From Escherichia coli (GTDB lineage Bacteria > Pseudomonadota > Gammaproteobacteria > Enterobacterales > Enterobacteriaceae): a DNA stretch of 34,162 nt. Position numbers and translations under genes: made by a program. Below are positions 15,846 through 21,408 of this stretch, piece after piece. Position 1 is the first letter of the stretch; each line of letters opens with the position of its first letter. The stretch lies in assembly GCF_003334315.1 (NCBI RefSeq), contig NZ_QOWR01000050.1. One strand, given 5' to 3'. The notes beneath the pieces were generated by a model. It searched no databases. It was not told where the DNA came from and saw nothing but the letters and a program-made list of their open reading frames with translations.

Positions 15846-15938
15846 TCCCCTTTACATCAGTGCTGATAATGTGAACCTGACTAAACCGCCCACAGAGCGC
15901 GGTTGCTAACAAGAACACAACATCTGACGAGGTTAATA

Positions 15939-18212
15939 ATGGGAAGCCCCTCTCTGTATTCTGCCCGTAAAACAACCCTGGCGTTGGCAGTCGCCTTAAG
16001 TTTCGCCTGGCAAGCGCCGGTATTTGCCCACGGTGGTGAAGCGCATATGGTGCCAATGGATAAAACGCTTAAAGAATTTGGTGCCGATGTGCAGTGGGAC
16101 GACTACGCCCAGCTCTTTACCCTGATTAAAGATGGCGCGTACGTGAAAGTGAAGCCTGGTGCGCAAACAGCAATTGTTAATGGTCAGCCTCTGGCACTGC
16201 AAGTACCGGTAGTGATGAAAGACAATAAAGCCTGGGTTTCTGACACCTTTATTAACGATGTTTTCCAGTCCGGGCTGGATCAAACCTTTCAGGTAGAAAA
16301 GCGCCCTCACCCACTTAATGCGCTAACTGCGGACGAAATTAAACAGGCCGTTGAAATTGTTAAAGCTTCCGCGGACTTCAAACCCAATACCCGTTTTACT
16401 GAGATCTCCCTGCTACCGCCAGATAAAGAAGCTGTCTGGGCGTTTGCGCTGGAAAACAAACCGGTTGACCAGCCGCGCAAAGCCGACGTCATTATGCTCG
16501 ACGGCAAACATATCATCGAAGCGGTGGTGGATCTGCAAAACAACAAACTGCTCTCCTGGCAACCCATTAAAGACGCCCACGGTATGGTGTTGCTGGATGA
16601 TTTCGCCAGTGTGCAGAACATTATTAACAACAGTGAAGAATTTGCCGCTGCCGTGAAGAAACGCGGTATTACTGATGCGAAAAAAGTGATTACCACGCCG
16701 CTGACCGTAGGTTATTTCGATGGTAAAGATGGCCTGAAACAAGATGCCCGGTTGCTCAAAGTCATCAGCTATCTTGATGTCGGTGATGGCAACTACTGGG
16801 CACATCCCATCGAAAACCTGGTGGCGGTCGTTGATTTAGAACAGAAAAAAATCGTTAAGATTGAAGAAGGTCCGGTAGTTCCGGTGCCAATGACCGCACG
16901 CCCATTTGATGGCCGTGACCGCGTTGCTCCGGCAGTTAAGCCTATGCAAATCATTGAGCCTGAAGGTAAAAATTACACCATTACTGGCGATATGATTCAC
17001 TGGCGGAACTGGGATTTTCACCTCAGCATGAACTCTCGCGTAGGGCCGATGATCTCCACCGTGACTTATAACGACAATGGCACCAAACGCAAAGTCATGT
17101 ACGAAGGTTCTCTCGGCGGCATGATTGTGCCTTACGGTGATCCTGATATTGGCTGGTACTTTAAAGCGTATCTGGACTCTGGTGACTACGGTATGGGCAC
17201 GCTAACCTCACCAATTGCTCGTGGTAAAGATGCCCCGTCTAACGCAGTGCTCCTTAATGAAACCATCGCCGACTACACTGGCGTGCCGATGGAGATCCCT
17301 CGCGCTATCGCGGTATTTGAACGTTATGCCGGGCCGGAGTATAAGCATCAGGAAATGGGCCAGCCCAACGTCAGTACCGAACGCCGGGAGTTAGTGGTGC
17401 GCTGGATCAGTACAGTGGGTAACTATGACTACATTTTTGACTGGATCTTCCATGAAAACGGCACTATTGGCATCGATGCCGGTGCTACGGGCATCGAAGC
17501 GGTGAAAGGTGTTAAAGCGAAAACCATGCACGATGAGACGGCGAAAGATGACACGCGCTACGGCACGCTTATCGATCACAATATCGTGGGTACTACACAC
17601 CAACATATTTATAATTTCCGCCTCGATCTGGATGTAGATGGCGAGAATAACAGCCTGGTGGCGATGGACCCAGTGGTAAAACCGAATACTGCCGGTGGCC
17701 CACGCACCAGTACCATGCAAGTTAATCAGTACAACATCGGCAATGAACAGGATGCCGCACAGAAATTTGATCCGGGCACGATTCGTCTGTTGAGTAACCC
17801 GAACAAAGAGAACCGCATGGGCAATCCGGTTTCCTATCAAATTATTCCTTATGCAGGTGGTACTCACCCGGTAGCAAAAGGTGCCCAGTTCGCGCCGGAC
17901 GAGTGGATCTATCATCGTTTAAGCTTTATGGACAAGCAGCTCTGGGTAACGCGTTATCATCCTGGCGAGCGTTTCCCGGAAGGCAAATATCCGAACCGTT
18001 CTACTCATGACACCGGTCTTGGACAATACAGTAAGGATAACGAGTCGCTGGACAACACCGACGCCGTTGTCTGGATGACCACCGGCACCACACATGTGGC
18101 CCGCGCCGAAGAGTGGCCGATTATGCCGACCGAATGGGTACATACTCTGCTGAAACCATGGAACTTCTTTGACGAAACGCCAACGCTAGGGGCGCTGAAG
18201 AAAGATAAGTGA
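15939..18212 (+). CDS. tynA: Periplasmic copper/topaquinone primary amine oxidase TynA, 757 aa
   Basis: Signal peptide MGSPSLYSARKTTLALAVALSFAWQAPVFA and the topaquinone precursor motif NYDY (…TVGNYDYIFDW…). Start trimmed from the track's 15903 to the ATG at 15939, which has a GAGG site. Confidence 0.9.
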   Translation: MGSPSLYSARKTTLALAVALSFAWQAPVFAHGGEAHMVPMDKTLKEFGADVQWDDYAQLFTLIKDGAYVKVKPGAQTAIVNGQPLALQVPVVMKDNKAWVSDTFINDVFQSGLDQTFQVEKRPHPLNALTADEIKQAVEIVKASADFKPNTRFTEISLLPPDKEAVWAFALENKPVDQPRKADVIMLDGKHIIEAVVDLQNNKLLSWQPIKDAHGMVLLDDFASVQNIINNSEEFAAAVKKRGITDAKKVITTPLTVGYFDGKDGLKQDARLLKVISYLDVGDGNYWAHPIENLVAVVDLEQKKIVKIEEGPVVPVPMTARPFDGRDRVAPAVKPMQIIEPEGKNYTITGDMIHWRNWDFHLSMNSRVGPMISTVTYNDNGTKRKVMYEGSLGGMIVPYGDPDIGWYFKAYLDSGDYGMGTLTSPIARGKDAPSNAVLLNETIADYTGVPMEIPRAIAVFERYAGPEYKHQEMGQPNVSTERRELVVRWISTVGNYDYIFDWIFHENGTIGIDAGATGIEAVKGVKAKTMHDETAKDDTRYGTLIDHNIVGTTHQHIYNFRLDLDVDGENNSLVAMDPVVKPNTAGGPRTSTMQVNQYNIGNEQDAAQKFDPGTIRLLSNPNKENRMGNPVSYQIIPYAGGTHPVAKGAQFAPDEWIYHRLSFMDKQLWVTRYHPGERFPEGKYPNRSTHDTGLGQYSKDNESLDNTDAVVWMTTGTTHVARAEEWPIMPTEWVHTLLKPWNFFDETPTLGALKKDK

Positions 18213-18223
18213 TTGTTTCAGAC

Positions 18224-18251
18224 AAAAAAACGGCACCAGGTGCCGTTTTTT
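18224..18251. terminator. Bidirectional rho-independent terminator between convergent tynA and feaB
   Basis: A7 (18224-18230), stem CGGCACC / GGTGCCG, then T6 (18246-18251). Confidence 0.75.
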
Positions 18252-18269: not shown

Positions 18270-19769
18270 TTAATACCGTACACACACCGACTTAGTTTCA
18301 CACCAACCGTCCAGCCAGTCGGGGCCAAAATCACGGCCCGTTCCTGACTGCTTCATCCCACCAAACGGTAAGTTAGCGTCAATTAAGGTATGGCTGTTTA
18401 CCCACACCGTCCCTGCCTGTAAGCGATCGCTATATTCCAGAGCCTGGGAGAGATTTTGCGTCCAGACACTGGCAGTTAAGCCATATTCCGTGTCGTTTGC
18501 CAGTTGTAACGCCTCTTCTCCATCCGCTACTCGCACCAGGTTTACCACCGGACCAAACACCTCTTCACGAGTTAAGCGCAATTTAGCATCGGGATTTACC
18601 ACCAGCGTTGGCGCAACATAATACCCCTCTCCGGCTGGTCCATTCGACCCGCGAATCAGCTCTGCTTGCTGTGCCTGCGCATCGTCGAGGAATGAACACA
18701 CTTTGTCGCAGTGCGCACGAGAAACCAAAGGGTTAATCTGTGCAACAGGTGACATCCCCGGTCCCACTTGCAACGATTTTACCGCCTGCTCAAATCCACT
18801 AACCAGCGTGTCAAACAACGGCGCTTCAATATAAATTCGCGAACTGGCGGCGCATACTTGCCCTTGATTCAGGAAGCTTCCGGTCATCAAGCCTTCAATA
18901 ACCCATTGCGGATCAGCATCTTTTAATACAATTGCCGGGTTTTTACCGCCCAGTTCCAGCGTTACACGCGTTAAGTGATCAGCAGCAGTTCTGGCAATAC
19001 CTTTTCCCGTCGCGGTTGAACCGGTAAAACTGATTTTCGCAACATGAGGATGTGACGTCAGGGCCGCGCCGCATACAGCACCTGACCCGGTGACGACATT
19101 AAAAACGCCATCAGGGATACCAGCCTCGCTGGCCAGTTCCGCCACGCGCAACATCGTCAGTGGCGTGGTTTCCGAAGGCTTAATCACGATTGAACAGCCT
19201 GCTGCCAGTGCTGGCATCACCTTCCACATACCAATCATCAACGGAAAGTTCCATGGCACAATTCCCGCCACTACGCCAACCGGCTCTTTACGCGTCCAGG
19301 CCTGATAACGCGCCCCCTGGGGTAAGGGAATCGACAAGTCCAGCGTTTTACCCGCGATTTTGGTCGTTAACCCGGCGGTATAACGCATCCAGTTCAGCGT
19401 ACAGCCCACTTCAAAAGCACGGGAAATGGCAATTGACTTGCCTTGCTCCAGGGTTTCCAGTTGCGCCAGCTCCTCACTGTGCTGCTCCACCAGATCAGCA
19501 AAACGTAGCAGAATACGTTCACGCTCTGCGGGTAATCGCCCGGCCCAGCGACGCGAGACAAAGGCCCGCCAGGCAGACATGACTGCGTTATCTACATCCG
19601 CTTCGTTGGCATCAGCAGTAGACGCAATTTCTTGCCCGGTGGCCGGATCAAAGATCGCCAACCGTTTTTCACTTTGTGCGGGGCCAGGACGACCATCAAT
19701 ATAAAGACCGTGTTGACGATCGAGAAACTGTTGGACCTGGCTTAATACTGCTACATGCGGCTCTGTCAT
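18270..19769 (-). CDS. feaB: Phenylacetaldehyde dehydrogenase FeaB, 499 aa
   Basis: Aldehyde dehydrogenase motifs ELGGKNP and catalytic Cys GQVCAASS. Start is at the second of two adjacent Met codons (the track gives 500 aa from 19772). Confidence 0.9.
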
Positions 19770-19829
19770 CACTTTTCCTTATTATTTACCCAGTGTGATT
19801 TCAGTGTACGCAGCGACAAGAAAAGTCAC

Positions 19830-20004: not shown

Positions 20005-20910
20005 ATGAACCCCGCAGTGGATAATGAGTTTCAGCAATGGCTTTCCCAAATCAATCAGGTATGCGGAAATTTTACCGGACGCCTGCTGACTGAGCGTTAC
20101 ACGGGTGTACTGGACACGCATTTTGCCAAAGGACTAAAGCTGAGTACCGTGACAACCAGCGGGGTGAATTTATCCCGCACCTGGCAGGAAGTAAAAGGCA
20201 GCGACGATGCCTGGTTTTACACCGTTTTTCAGCTTAGTGGTCAGGCAATAATGGAGCAGGATGAGCGTCAGGTGCAGATTGGCGCTGGCGATATTACGTT
20301 ACTCGATGCCTCACGCCCCTGTTCGCTTTACTGGCAGGAGTCTTCTAAACAGATTTCATTACTTTTGCCACGCACTCTGCTGGAACAATATTTTCCCCAT
20401 CAAAAACCTGTCTGCGCAGAAAGACTGGACGCTGACTTACCCATGGTGCAACTCAGTCATCGCCTGTTACAGGAGAGCATGAATAATCCGGCACTTTCTG
20501 AAACAGAAAGTGAAGCTGCGCTACAGGCGATGGTGTGTCTGCTGCGCCCGGTACTTCATCAGCGGGAATCTGTTCAACCTCGTCGTGAACGTCAGTTTCA
20601 AAAAGTGGTTACGTTGATAGACGATAATATTCGCGAAGAGATATTACGCCCGGAGTGGATAGCCGGAGAGACAGGTATGTCAGTACGTAGTTTGTACCGA
20701 ATGTTTGCCGATAAAGGTTTGGTAGTCGCGCAATATATTCGTAACCGTCGTCTCGATTTTTGTGCAGATGCGATTCGCCATGCCGCAGATGATGAAAAAC
20801 TGGCAGGCATCGGCTTTCATTGGGGATTTTCTGACCAGAGTCATTTTTCAACGGTATTTAAGCAACGCTTTGGGATGACGCCAGGCGAGTATCGACGTAA
20901 ATTCCGCTAA
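20005..20910 (+). CDS. feaR: AraC-family transcriptional activator FeaR, 301 aa
   Basis: 301-aa protein with a C-terminal AraC-type helix-turn-helix (…RSLYRMFADKGLVVAQYIRNRRLDFCADAI…FSDQSHFSTVFKQRFGMTPGEYRRKF); divergent from feaB. Confidence 0.9.
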   Translation: MNPAVDNEFQQWLSQINQVCGNFTGRLLTERYTGVLDTHFAKGLKLSTVTTSGVNLSRTWQEVKGSDDAWFYTVFQLSGQAIMEQDERQVQIGAGDITLLDASRPCSLYWQESSKQISLLLPRTLLEQYFPHQKPVCAERLDADLPMVQLSHRLLQESMNNPALSETESEAALQAMVCLLRPVLHQRESVQPRRERQFQKVVTLIDDNIREEILRPEWIAGETGMSVRSLYRMFADKGLVVAQYIRNRRLDFCADAIRHAADDEKLAGIGFHWGFSDQSHFSTVFKQRFGMTPGEYRRKFR

Positions 20911-20945
20911 CTAATTGGCGTTGCATGTACTGCAACGCCAATTAG
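20911..20945. terminator. Perfect 15-bp inverted repeat (5-nt loop) between convergent feaR and ydbL; probable bidirectional terminator or RNA-stabilising hairpin
   Basis: CTAATTGGCGTTGCA (20911-20925) / TGCAACGCCAATTAG (20931-20945); begins immediately after the feaR stop codon; no strong U-tract on either side. Confidence 0.55.
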
Positions 20946-21081
20946 TTAAAACAGATATTTGACTATGCATTTTTCAGGGCAAAAGGCAATTTGACAGGAG
21001 TTTTTGAATATTCACCTTGTTTCAGGAAAATAGATCAATCGCCTTCTCCTGTAGCGTTATCCCGATATTGCGGTTTTGCTA

Positions 21082-21408
21082 TTAAAATTTTCGCACCCAT
21101 TTACCGTTTATCCCTTGTACATATTCCCCCGGTTTGGCCCGAGCTACGAGCTTTTGCCCGGCGAGTTTCGCGATATCATCTACCGACACATTATTTTGCT
21201 TTGCCAGTTGTTGGTAACTCGCTTTACGTTCGGCATTAATGTCGGCTACTAATTTCTCTGTTTCAGCATCCGTTTTCAGCGCAACCAGATAACCGTAAAA
21301 TGTTTCACCTACCCGCCCCTGAGTTCTGGCTTCATCCAGAGTCAATGCCATTACATTGCTGCTTACCAGCCCAACAAGAAACGCACAAAGAAGTAATGTT
21401 TTCTTCAT
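21082..21408 (-). CDS. ydbL: Periplasmic DUF1318-type protein YdbL, 108 aa
   Basis: Signal peptide MKKTLLLCAFLVGLVSSNVMA; GAGG site 5 nt before this ATG and overlapping the ynbE stop. The track ORF (135 aa) starts upstream inside ynbE. Confidence 0.75.
   Translation of the reverse strand: MKKTLLLCAFLVGLVSSNVMALTLDEARTQGRVGETFYGYLVALKTDAETEKLVADINAERKASYQQLAKQNNVSVDDIAKLAGQKLVARAKPGEYVQGINGKWVRKF

Follow-up and report, generated by a model that had tools for sequence, protein, structure and literature searches.

A long perfect palindrome between the convergent feaR and ydbL genes of Escherichia coli as a candidate protective 3' stem-loop

We identified a 41-bp perfect palindrome between the convergent genes feaR and ydbL of Escherichia coli, which is most likely an ordinary 3' hairpin without a U-tract, remarkable mainly for its length and perfection. 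The reading that we put forward, tentatively, is that this stem-loop may guard the 3' ends of Rho-terminated transcripts and may be usable from either side. In K-12 it probably marks where the feaR and ydbH-ynbE-ydbL transcription units end on their 3' sides, which is of little import beyond annotation. It was found in a stretch of 34,162 nucleotides (the window, whose positions are used throughout) that is 100% identical to E. coli K-12 MG1655, and it corresponds to positions 1446340-1446380 of NC_000913.3.

The palindrome occupies positions 20908-20948. The arms described in the earlier note, CTAATTGGCGTTGCA and TGCAACGCCAATTAG around tgtac at 20911-20945, were present in the window sequence as reported, but their length of 15 bp was an underestimate, as pairing runs 3 bp further on either side and yields two 18-nt arms that are 100% complementary and separated by a 5-nt loop (Table 1). 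Nor does the palindrome begin right after the feaR stop, because the TAA codon at 20908-20910 itself belongs to the stem. The element is far beyond chance expectation: no other perfect hairpin-type inverted repeat in the window is as long, and the longest arms found in Markov shuffles were 8-12 bp (n=60), compared with 18 bp in the palindrome. Its 101-nt context folded with -35.9 kcal/mol on the + strand and -36.5 kcal/mol on the - strand (z about -4.8), and none of 200 shuffles folded as well. The outer stem carries the symmetric motif AATTGG...CCAATT. The convergence of feaR and ydbL around the palindrome, also proposed earlier, was borne out by the gene coordinates, and ynbE and ydbH lie on the - strand as well. 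The sole small ORF overlapping the palindrome, a 27-aa TTG ORF on the - strand (20858-20941), was rejected as having no support.

Table 1 Coordinates of the palindrome, its parts and the surrounding features (window positions unless a locus is named).
Feature	Position	Strand	Remarks
tynA	15903-18212	+	Converges with feaB
tynA/feaB terminator	18225-18251		13-bp perfect arms
feaB	18270-19772	-	
feaR CDS	20005-20910	+	Stop codon forms the first 3 bp of the stem
Published Rho termination region	20787 (approximate)	-	MG1655 1446501, + strand; antisense to feaR
Left arm TAACTAATTGGCGTTGCA	20908-20925	.	First 3 bases are the feaR TAA stop; from inverted-repeat match and shuffles
GC-rich 9-bp core stem and loop (GGCGTTGCA / TGCAACGCC)	20917-20939	.	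dG about -14 to -15 kcal/mol
Loop TGTAC, 5 nt	20926-20930	.	GUACA in - strand RNA
Right arm TGCAACGCCAATTAGTTA	20931-20948	.	Holds TTAG, twice an IS5 target
Remainder of the 171-bp feaR-ydbL spacer	20949-21081	.	133-nt 3' UTR from the ydbL stop to the hairpin
ydbL	21082-21408	-	Last gene of ydbH-ynbE-ydbL; converges on feaR
Abutting feaR/ydbL stops outside E. coli	~2403-2410 of loci L016, L017 and L018		

The layout of the palindrome, with a GC-rich core and symmetric A/T-rich flanks, resembles that of a bidirectional intrinsic terminator. The core stem (GGCGUUGCA/UGCAACGCC) comprises 9 bp with 6 G-C pairs, with a dG of -14.4 kcal/mol on the + strand and -15.3 kcal/mol on the - strand, and the outer 9 bp form a symmetric A/U-rich flank. 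A canonical bidirectional intrinsic terminator, AAAAAACGGCACC-A-GGTGCCGTTTTTT, was observed in the same window between the convergent tynA and feaB genes, and was used as a control. To count U-tracts, every sub-stem on both strands was enumerated and T residues were counted in 8-nt windows of the tail. The tail past the core of the palindrome, AAUUAGUU, begins with AA, and its best 8-nt window, AATTAGTT, contains 4 T; the maximum on either strand was 4 U in 8, against 6-7 U in 8 for the tynA/feaB control, in line with the earlier statement that no U-tract is present. A consensus terminator scan returned nothing at the palindrome. The same scan missed the tynA/feaB terminator, probably because the A and T tracts pair there and lengthen the stem, so that its negative result is uninformative for palindromic terminators, a class that such a scan has now been shown to miss.

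We then considered published data on Rho. A Rho termination region antisense to feaR was reported at 1446501 (+) by Adams et al. 2021 (PMC7815308, supplementary file 2), which after conversion from MG1655 coordinates would be reached by transcription from ydbL about 120 nt past the hairpin (an approximate position, given the 800-nt scoring windows). Reads upstream and downstream of this position, low in number, were 54/14 in untreated cells and 87/91 with bicyclomycin (Rho score 4.0, p = 1.3e-5; PMC7815308). Polymerase arriving from ydbL is thus stopped by Rho, and the 87/91 reads with bicyclomycin mean that there is no visible drop across the hairpin once Rho is inhibited. The 3' coding end of feaR doubles as a Rho terminator for read-through from ydbH-ynbE-ydbL, as the Rho region of PMC7815308 lies antisense within feaR. 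The palindrome therefore shares the GC-rich stem-loop of canonical intrinsic terminators, but neither their U-rich tract after the stem nor, in the ydbL direction, their independence of Rho. The degenerate U-tract and the Rho-dependent termination beyond the hairpin both agree with the earlier view that this is not a classical intrinsic terminator.

These results bear on the possibility, which we regard as unlikely, that the palindrome is a co-transcriptional bidirectional terminator or pause element, acting either as a weak intrinsic terminator with a degenerate U-tract or by collision. In the collision variant, the hairpin would pause polymerase, and converging and trailing polymerases would dislodge each other at a fixed position. 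The 9-bp GC-rich core with its symmetric A/T-rich 9-mers, similar to the element between tynA and feaB, is consistent with a terminator, although the tail has no more than 4 U in 8 and opens with AA. A coupled ribosome at the feaR stop would moreover hinder hairpin formation behind the polymerase, and head-on collisions should be rare given the weak expression of feaR. The location between convergent genes also fits the prevalent Rho-independent hairpin elements, unlike intrinsic terminators, that Wang, Ju and Liu (bioRxiv 10.1101/2022.10.23.513370) described between convergent E. coli genes as pause/collision sites. The palindrome is likewise a hairpin between convergent genes that is unlike an intrinsic terminator, but the signal in the ydbL direction was bicyclomycin-sensitive and hence Rho-dependent, and the 87/91 reads show no drop.

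A protective 3' stem-loop accounts for these observations better. The palindrome would be transcribed from both sides, so as to form an 18-bp RNA hairpin in the feaR mRNA and in the ydbH-ynbE-ydbL mRNA. By itself the hairpin would release RNA polymerase inefficiently, and polymerase would continue antisense into the opposing gene, where Rho would terminate it. The RNA would then be trimmed back from its 3' end and stabilised by the hairpin; we infer both of these last steps, as well as the whole of the feaR direction. One symmetric element could in this way cap the 3' ends of two converging units. On the feaR side, the stop codon already belongs to the stem, most of which a terminating ribosome must therefore melt; the hairpin could form only after the ribosome leaves, and a co-transcriptional role in this direction is unlikely.

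This model follows Dar and Sorek 2018 (PMC6061677), who found that the steady-state 3' ends of Rho-dependent E. coli transcripts are precise and lie directly downstream of stable stem-loops. Those stem-loops have neither U-rich tails nor upstream A-tracts, shield the RNA from PNPase and RNase II, and precede a mild C-over-G enrichment (PMC6061677). The palindrome likewise forms a stable stem-loop with no U-rich tail or A-tract, C mildly exceeds G downstream of it on both strands, and Rho-dependent termination downstream was reported for the ydbL direction only. Judged by this indirect match, a 3' stabilising hairpin appears to fit best among the three roles that had been suggested for the palindrome, the others being a processing site and a protein-binding palindrome. 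Capping is also favoured by the stability of the hairpin on both strands and in all six natural alleles, by the three Watson-Crick states of one stem pair and by the wobble pairs that transitions give in the feaR-sense RNA. It is disfavoured by the absence of the hairpin beyond E. coli, by a polymorphism no lower than that of the spacer, by a covariation among the alleles that is only suggestive, and by the overlap of the stem with the feaR stop.

Published 3'-end maps were of little help at this locus, which is poorly expressed in LB and M63. The Term-seq lists of Adams 2021 contained no 3' end for feaR or ydbL, nor for tynA or feaB; since the canonical tynA/feaB terminator is likewise unlisted, the missing 3' end at the palindrome is uninformative and reflects low expression. 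No 3' end at the palindrome was found in the TRS and SMRT-Cappable supplements, and literature searches combining feaR with ydbL, terminator or tynA returned nothing relevant.

The palindrome is a locus-specific, single-copy element. A genome-wide search for further copies of the arm had been suggested earlier as a means of recognising a generic repeat, and the outcome was negative for such a repeat. By megablast, the 41-mer was found at exactly one place per genome in 1,815 E. coli genomes, and by blastn of a 57-mer about 4,196 of 5,426 complete E. coli genomes had the full element at this locus, with an identity never below 90%; the two places reported by blastn for some alleles were read as the palindrome matching its own opposite strand. 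The arm sequence had no second copy within the window. Among 72,556 plasmids and 50,697 phages there was no genuine copy, the matches being mislabelled chromosomal records or chance matches (E 3-9). The former included a record filed as a phage, CP025887.1 ('Escherichia phage 503046', 23 kb), and the plasmid-collection records NZ_OL790696.1 and NZ_CP134663.1 (4.8-4.9 Mb) and CP054253.1 (253 kb), all of which carry the feaR palindrome and are apparently mislabelled chromosome, as judged from their size or missing annotation. An Rfam search of the palindrome yielded just microRNA-like chance matches far under the gathering scores. An interspersed repeat family (REP/BIME, ERIC, MITEs or IS termini) was rejected on the same grounds of one place per genome and nothing real in plasmids or phages.

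The feaR-ydbL spacer is a frequent landing zone for insertion sequences and a frequent site of deletions. An IS5-like element, ISKpn26, was found in the TTAG of the right arm (20942-20945) in two unrelated strains (loci L021 and L022, both at ~1238), with different palindrome alleles, opposite orientations and a duplicated TTAG. The target preference of IS5 is YTAR, which TTAG fits. In strain ETEC1739 (L020, ~2500), an IS1 end lies directly against the right arm at its first base (20930/20931), and all DNA left of this point, feaR among it, has been lost. A second IS1-bounded deletion stops near 20967 (L012), and in one strain (H31) IS1 lies inside a 901-bp region. In E. coli lineages, feaR or its 5' part has been lost through at least three distinct rearrangements. 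The paaY|feaR and paaX|feaR junctions (L010 at ~20659 and L011 at ~20700) leave a promoterless feaR remnant of 208-250 bp, which is annotated as 'helix-turn-helix domain-containing protein'. In B2 strains (L013, ~21010), the whole region is replaced by an AT-rich segment beside a gene for a giant beta-strand-repeat protein.

Such a setting raises the idea that the palindrome is a mobile-element scar or a recombinase site, for example abutted inverted repeats, a MITE remnant or an att-like sequence, tied to the variable paa-tynA-fea region. We consider this very improbable. The region is indeed prone to rearrangement, with independent deletions, IS1 and IS5 events and the B2 replacement, and the spacer is an E. 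coli-specific insertion between formerly abutting stops. Against it, the palindrome is present as a single copy with no similarity to multi-copy sequence in the 5,426 genomes, 72,556 plasmids and 50,697 phages, flanking direct repeats are absent, and the IS5 hits are accounted for by the YTAR preference. The B2 junction lies near 21010, about 60-100 bp from the palindrome, and an att site or island junction at the palindrome itself was rejected for this reason.

The lack of a second copy also weighs against a DNA operator for a dimeric protein, such as a transcription factor or a nucleoid protein, that would act as a roadblock or insulator between the two units. The perfect dyad symmetry around an odd 5-bp centre and the symmetric AATTGG...CCAATT would suit such a protein, but the pair 20917/20939 takes three base identities, arm positions adjacent to the centre vary, and half-sites of 18 bp are far longer than those of known operators. 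No other copy was found in E. coli genomes, plasmids or phages, which leaves no regulon. Both genes have the palindrome at their 3' ends, and related genera carrying these genes lack it. We found neither conserved half-site bases, nor a promoter-proximal site, nor a regulon, and we know of no matching operator motif. The protein-binding palindrome put forward in the earlier note is accordingly disfavoured, and an operator is highly unlikely.

We compared the natural alleles of the palindrome, six of which cover essentially all carriers. The K-12 allele (V1; 1,403 genomes) has the perfect 18-bp stem. V2 (about 400 genomes) has a C.C mismatch at 20917/20939, and V3 combines this mismatch with a C-to-T change that gives U.G; V2 and V3 together account for 412 genomes, and all seven sampled matches at 97.6% identity were V2. 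V4 (1,327 genomes) carries CA to TG at 20924-20925, which forms G.U and U.G wobbles in the + strand RNA but leaves mismatches in the - strand RNA. In V5 (880 genomes), the pair 20917/20939 is C-G, with an additional T to A change at 20931, and V6 (129 genomes) combines this A at 20931 with an A-T pair at 20917/20939. All six alleles fold with a dG of -18 to -27.6 kcal/mol on both strands.

The outermost pair of the core, 20917/20939, thus occurs in three Watson-Crick states (G-C, C-G and A-T) in addition to the C.C mismatch, and it is the sole pair changed on both sides. In the covariation test on the alleles, 96.3% of cells were paired, and the covariation score was 0.085, compared with a shuffle mean of 0.054; 25 of 500 shuffles reached the observed score. 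This result is only suggestive. All three transition polymorphisms are G.U wobbles in the feaR-sense RNA. The density of polymorphic sites in the palindrome (6/41) equals that in the rest of the spacer (19/133) and is above that of the coding flanks, which means that the primary sequence is not conserved and the pairing alone is. Flanking SNPs suggest that V2 is a recombinant whose left arm is V5-like and whose right arm is V1-like. Over the feaR-ydbL locus such SNPs form mosaic patterns, implying frequent recombination, and window position 20724, a synonymous-looking site in the feaR 3' coding region, is tri-allelic (A/C/G) among 11 strains.

Quasipalindrome template-switch correction is a known mutational mechanism in E. 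coli, and it offers another explanation of the allele series, namely that the palindrome is functionless, appeared together with the spacer specific to E. coli and is kept perfect or nearly so by template switching. Copying of one arm from the other at replication would give 'compensatory' changes without selection. This explanation, to which we assign a minor likelihood, agrees with the absence of the palindrome from sister genera and divergent Escherichia and with a polymorphism density equal to that of the neutral spacer. Both double changes fall at one pair, no single-step intermediate was sampled, and the C.C allele is more simply a recombinant. The palindrome is also unchanged in lineages in which feaR is a promoterless remnant, and insertions of IS elements within or next to it have no evident cost. 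On the other hand, the V4 wobble allele (1,327 genomes) and the V2 C.C allele (about 400) stay 'uncorrected', and the three transitions, all wobble-compatible on the same RNA strand, hint at tolerance at the RNA level, although as two or three events they are not significant. In addition, a transcribed hairpin of about -27 kcal/mol blocks 3' exonucleases whether selected or not. The allele pattern fits compensatory selection on the hairpin and template-switch correction equally, and the data cannot separate them. With its G-C/C-G/A-T pair and its mismatch allele over about 4,200 genomes, the palindrome makes a natural test case for compensatory RNA selection versus DNA template-switch self-correction.

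To trace the origin of the palindrome, we scanned one genome per species for FeaR, which returned four relevant loci, and the palindrome was in none of these four loci outside E. coli. The convergent feaR-ydbL pair was found in two species of Pseudocitrobacter, P. faecalis and P. vendiensis, and in a Pluralibacter MAG. There the feaR and ydbL stops abut (TGA followed by TTA or TCA), with no spacer and no inverted repeat, so the transcripts must overlap the opposing gene. In a divergent Escherichia lineage (L015), FeaR is 97% identical and ends with a TGA stop, which is followed by an unrelated spacer of about 80 nt; this spacer showed no significant structure (z = +0.7) and was not matched in any of the 5,426 complete E. 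coli genomes. Homology between K-12 and L015 ends exactly at the feaR stop. Because the stops abut in related genera and the L015 spacer is unrelated, comparison of these loci indicates that the palindrome and the rest of the 171-bp K-12 spacer were inserted, in E. coli only, between formerly abutting stops. B2 strains without feaR share just the end of the spacer next to ydbL (about 21010 to 21081), and the palindrome belongs to the feaR side of the spacer rather than to the B2 junction. As the hairpin is not kept beyond E. coli, neither operon needs it.

A more far-reaching proposal is that the palindrome is a selected, E. coli-specific insulator placed exactly between the formerly abutting stops. 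Pausing of polymerase and capping of both RNAs would uncouple feaR, which acts in aromatic-amine catabolism, from the ydbH-ynbE-ydbL lipid-transport operon, melting of the stem by the ribosome at the stop codon would couple feaR translation to 3' decay or Rho access, and the G-C/C-G/A-T series would represent genuine compensatory evolution within the species. We think this proposal quite improbable.

The palindrome can be compared with several known systems. Quasipalindrome template-switch hotspots in E. coli (Ripley model; Lovett laboratory) are defined by laboratory mutation assays. The palindrome resembles them in being short and almost perfect and in having arms with mirrored changes, but it is known from a population allele series alone, in which selection is inseparable from mutation bias. 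With bidirectional intrinsic terminators, as between tynA and feaB, it shares a perfect palindrome, a GC-rich core, symmetric A/T-rich flanks and a position between convergent genes; it differs in that its flank, AAUUAGUUA, has 4 U in 8 rather than a U run with 6-7 in 8, and in that termination of transcripts arriving from ydbL depends on Rho in vivo. Terminators of the collision type (Ju et al. 2019; Wang et al. bioRxiv 10.1101/2022.10.23.513370) are also hairpins between convergent genes that are unlike intrinsic terminators, but this class is reportedly Rho-independent and works best for highly expressed pairs, whereas feaR and ydbL are weakly expressed and the signal is bicyclomycin-sensitive. 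The closest likeness is to the stem-loops of Dar and Sorek 2018, which are stable, lack a U-rich tail or upstream A-tract, and are followed by Rho termination (here in one direction) and by a mild excess of C over G. Compared with these, the palindrome is unusually long and perfect (18 bp), overlaps a stop codon, and is symmetric, which could let it serve two converging units.
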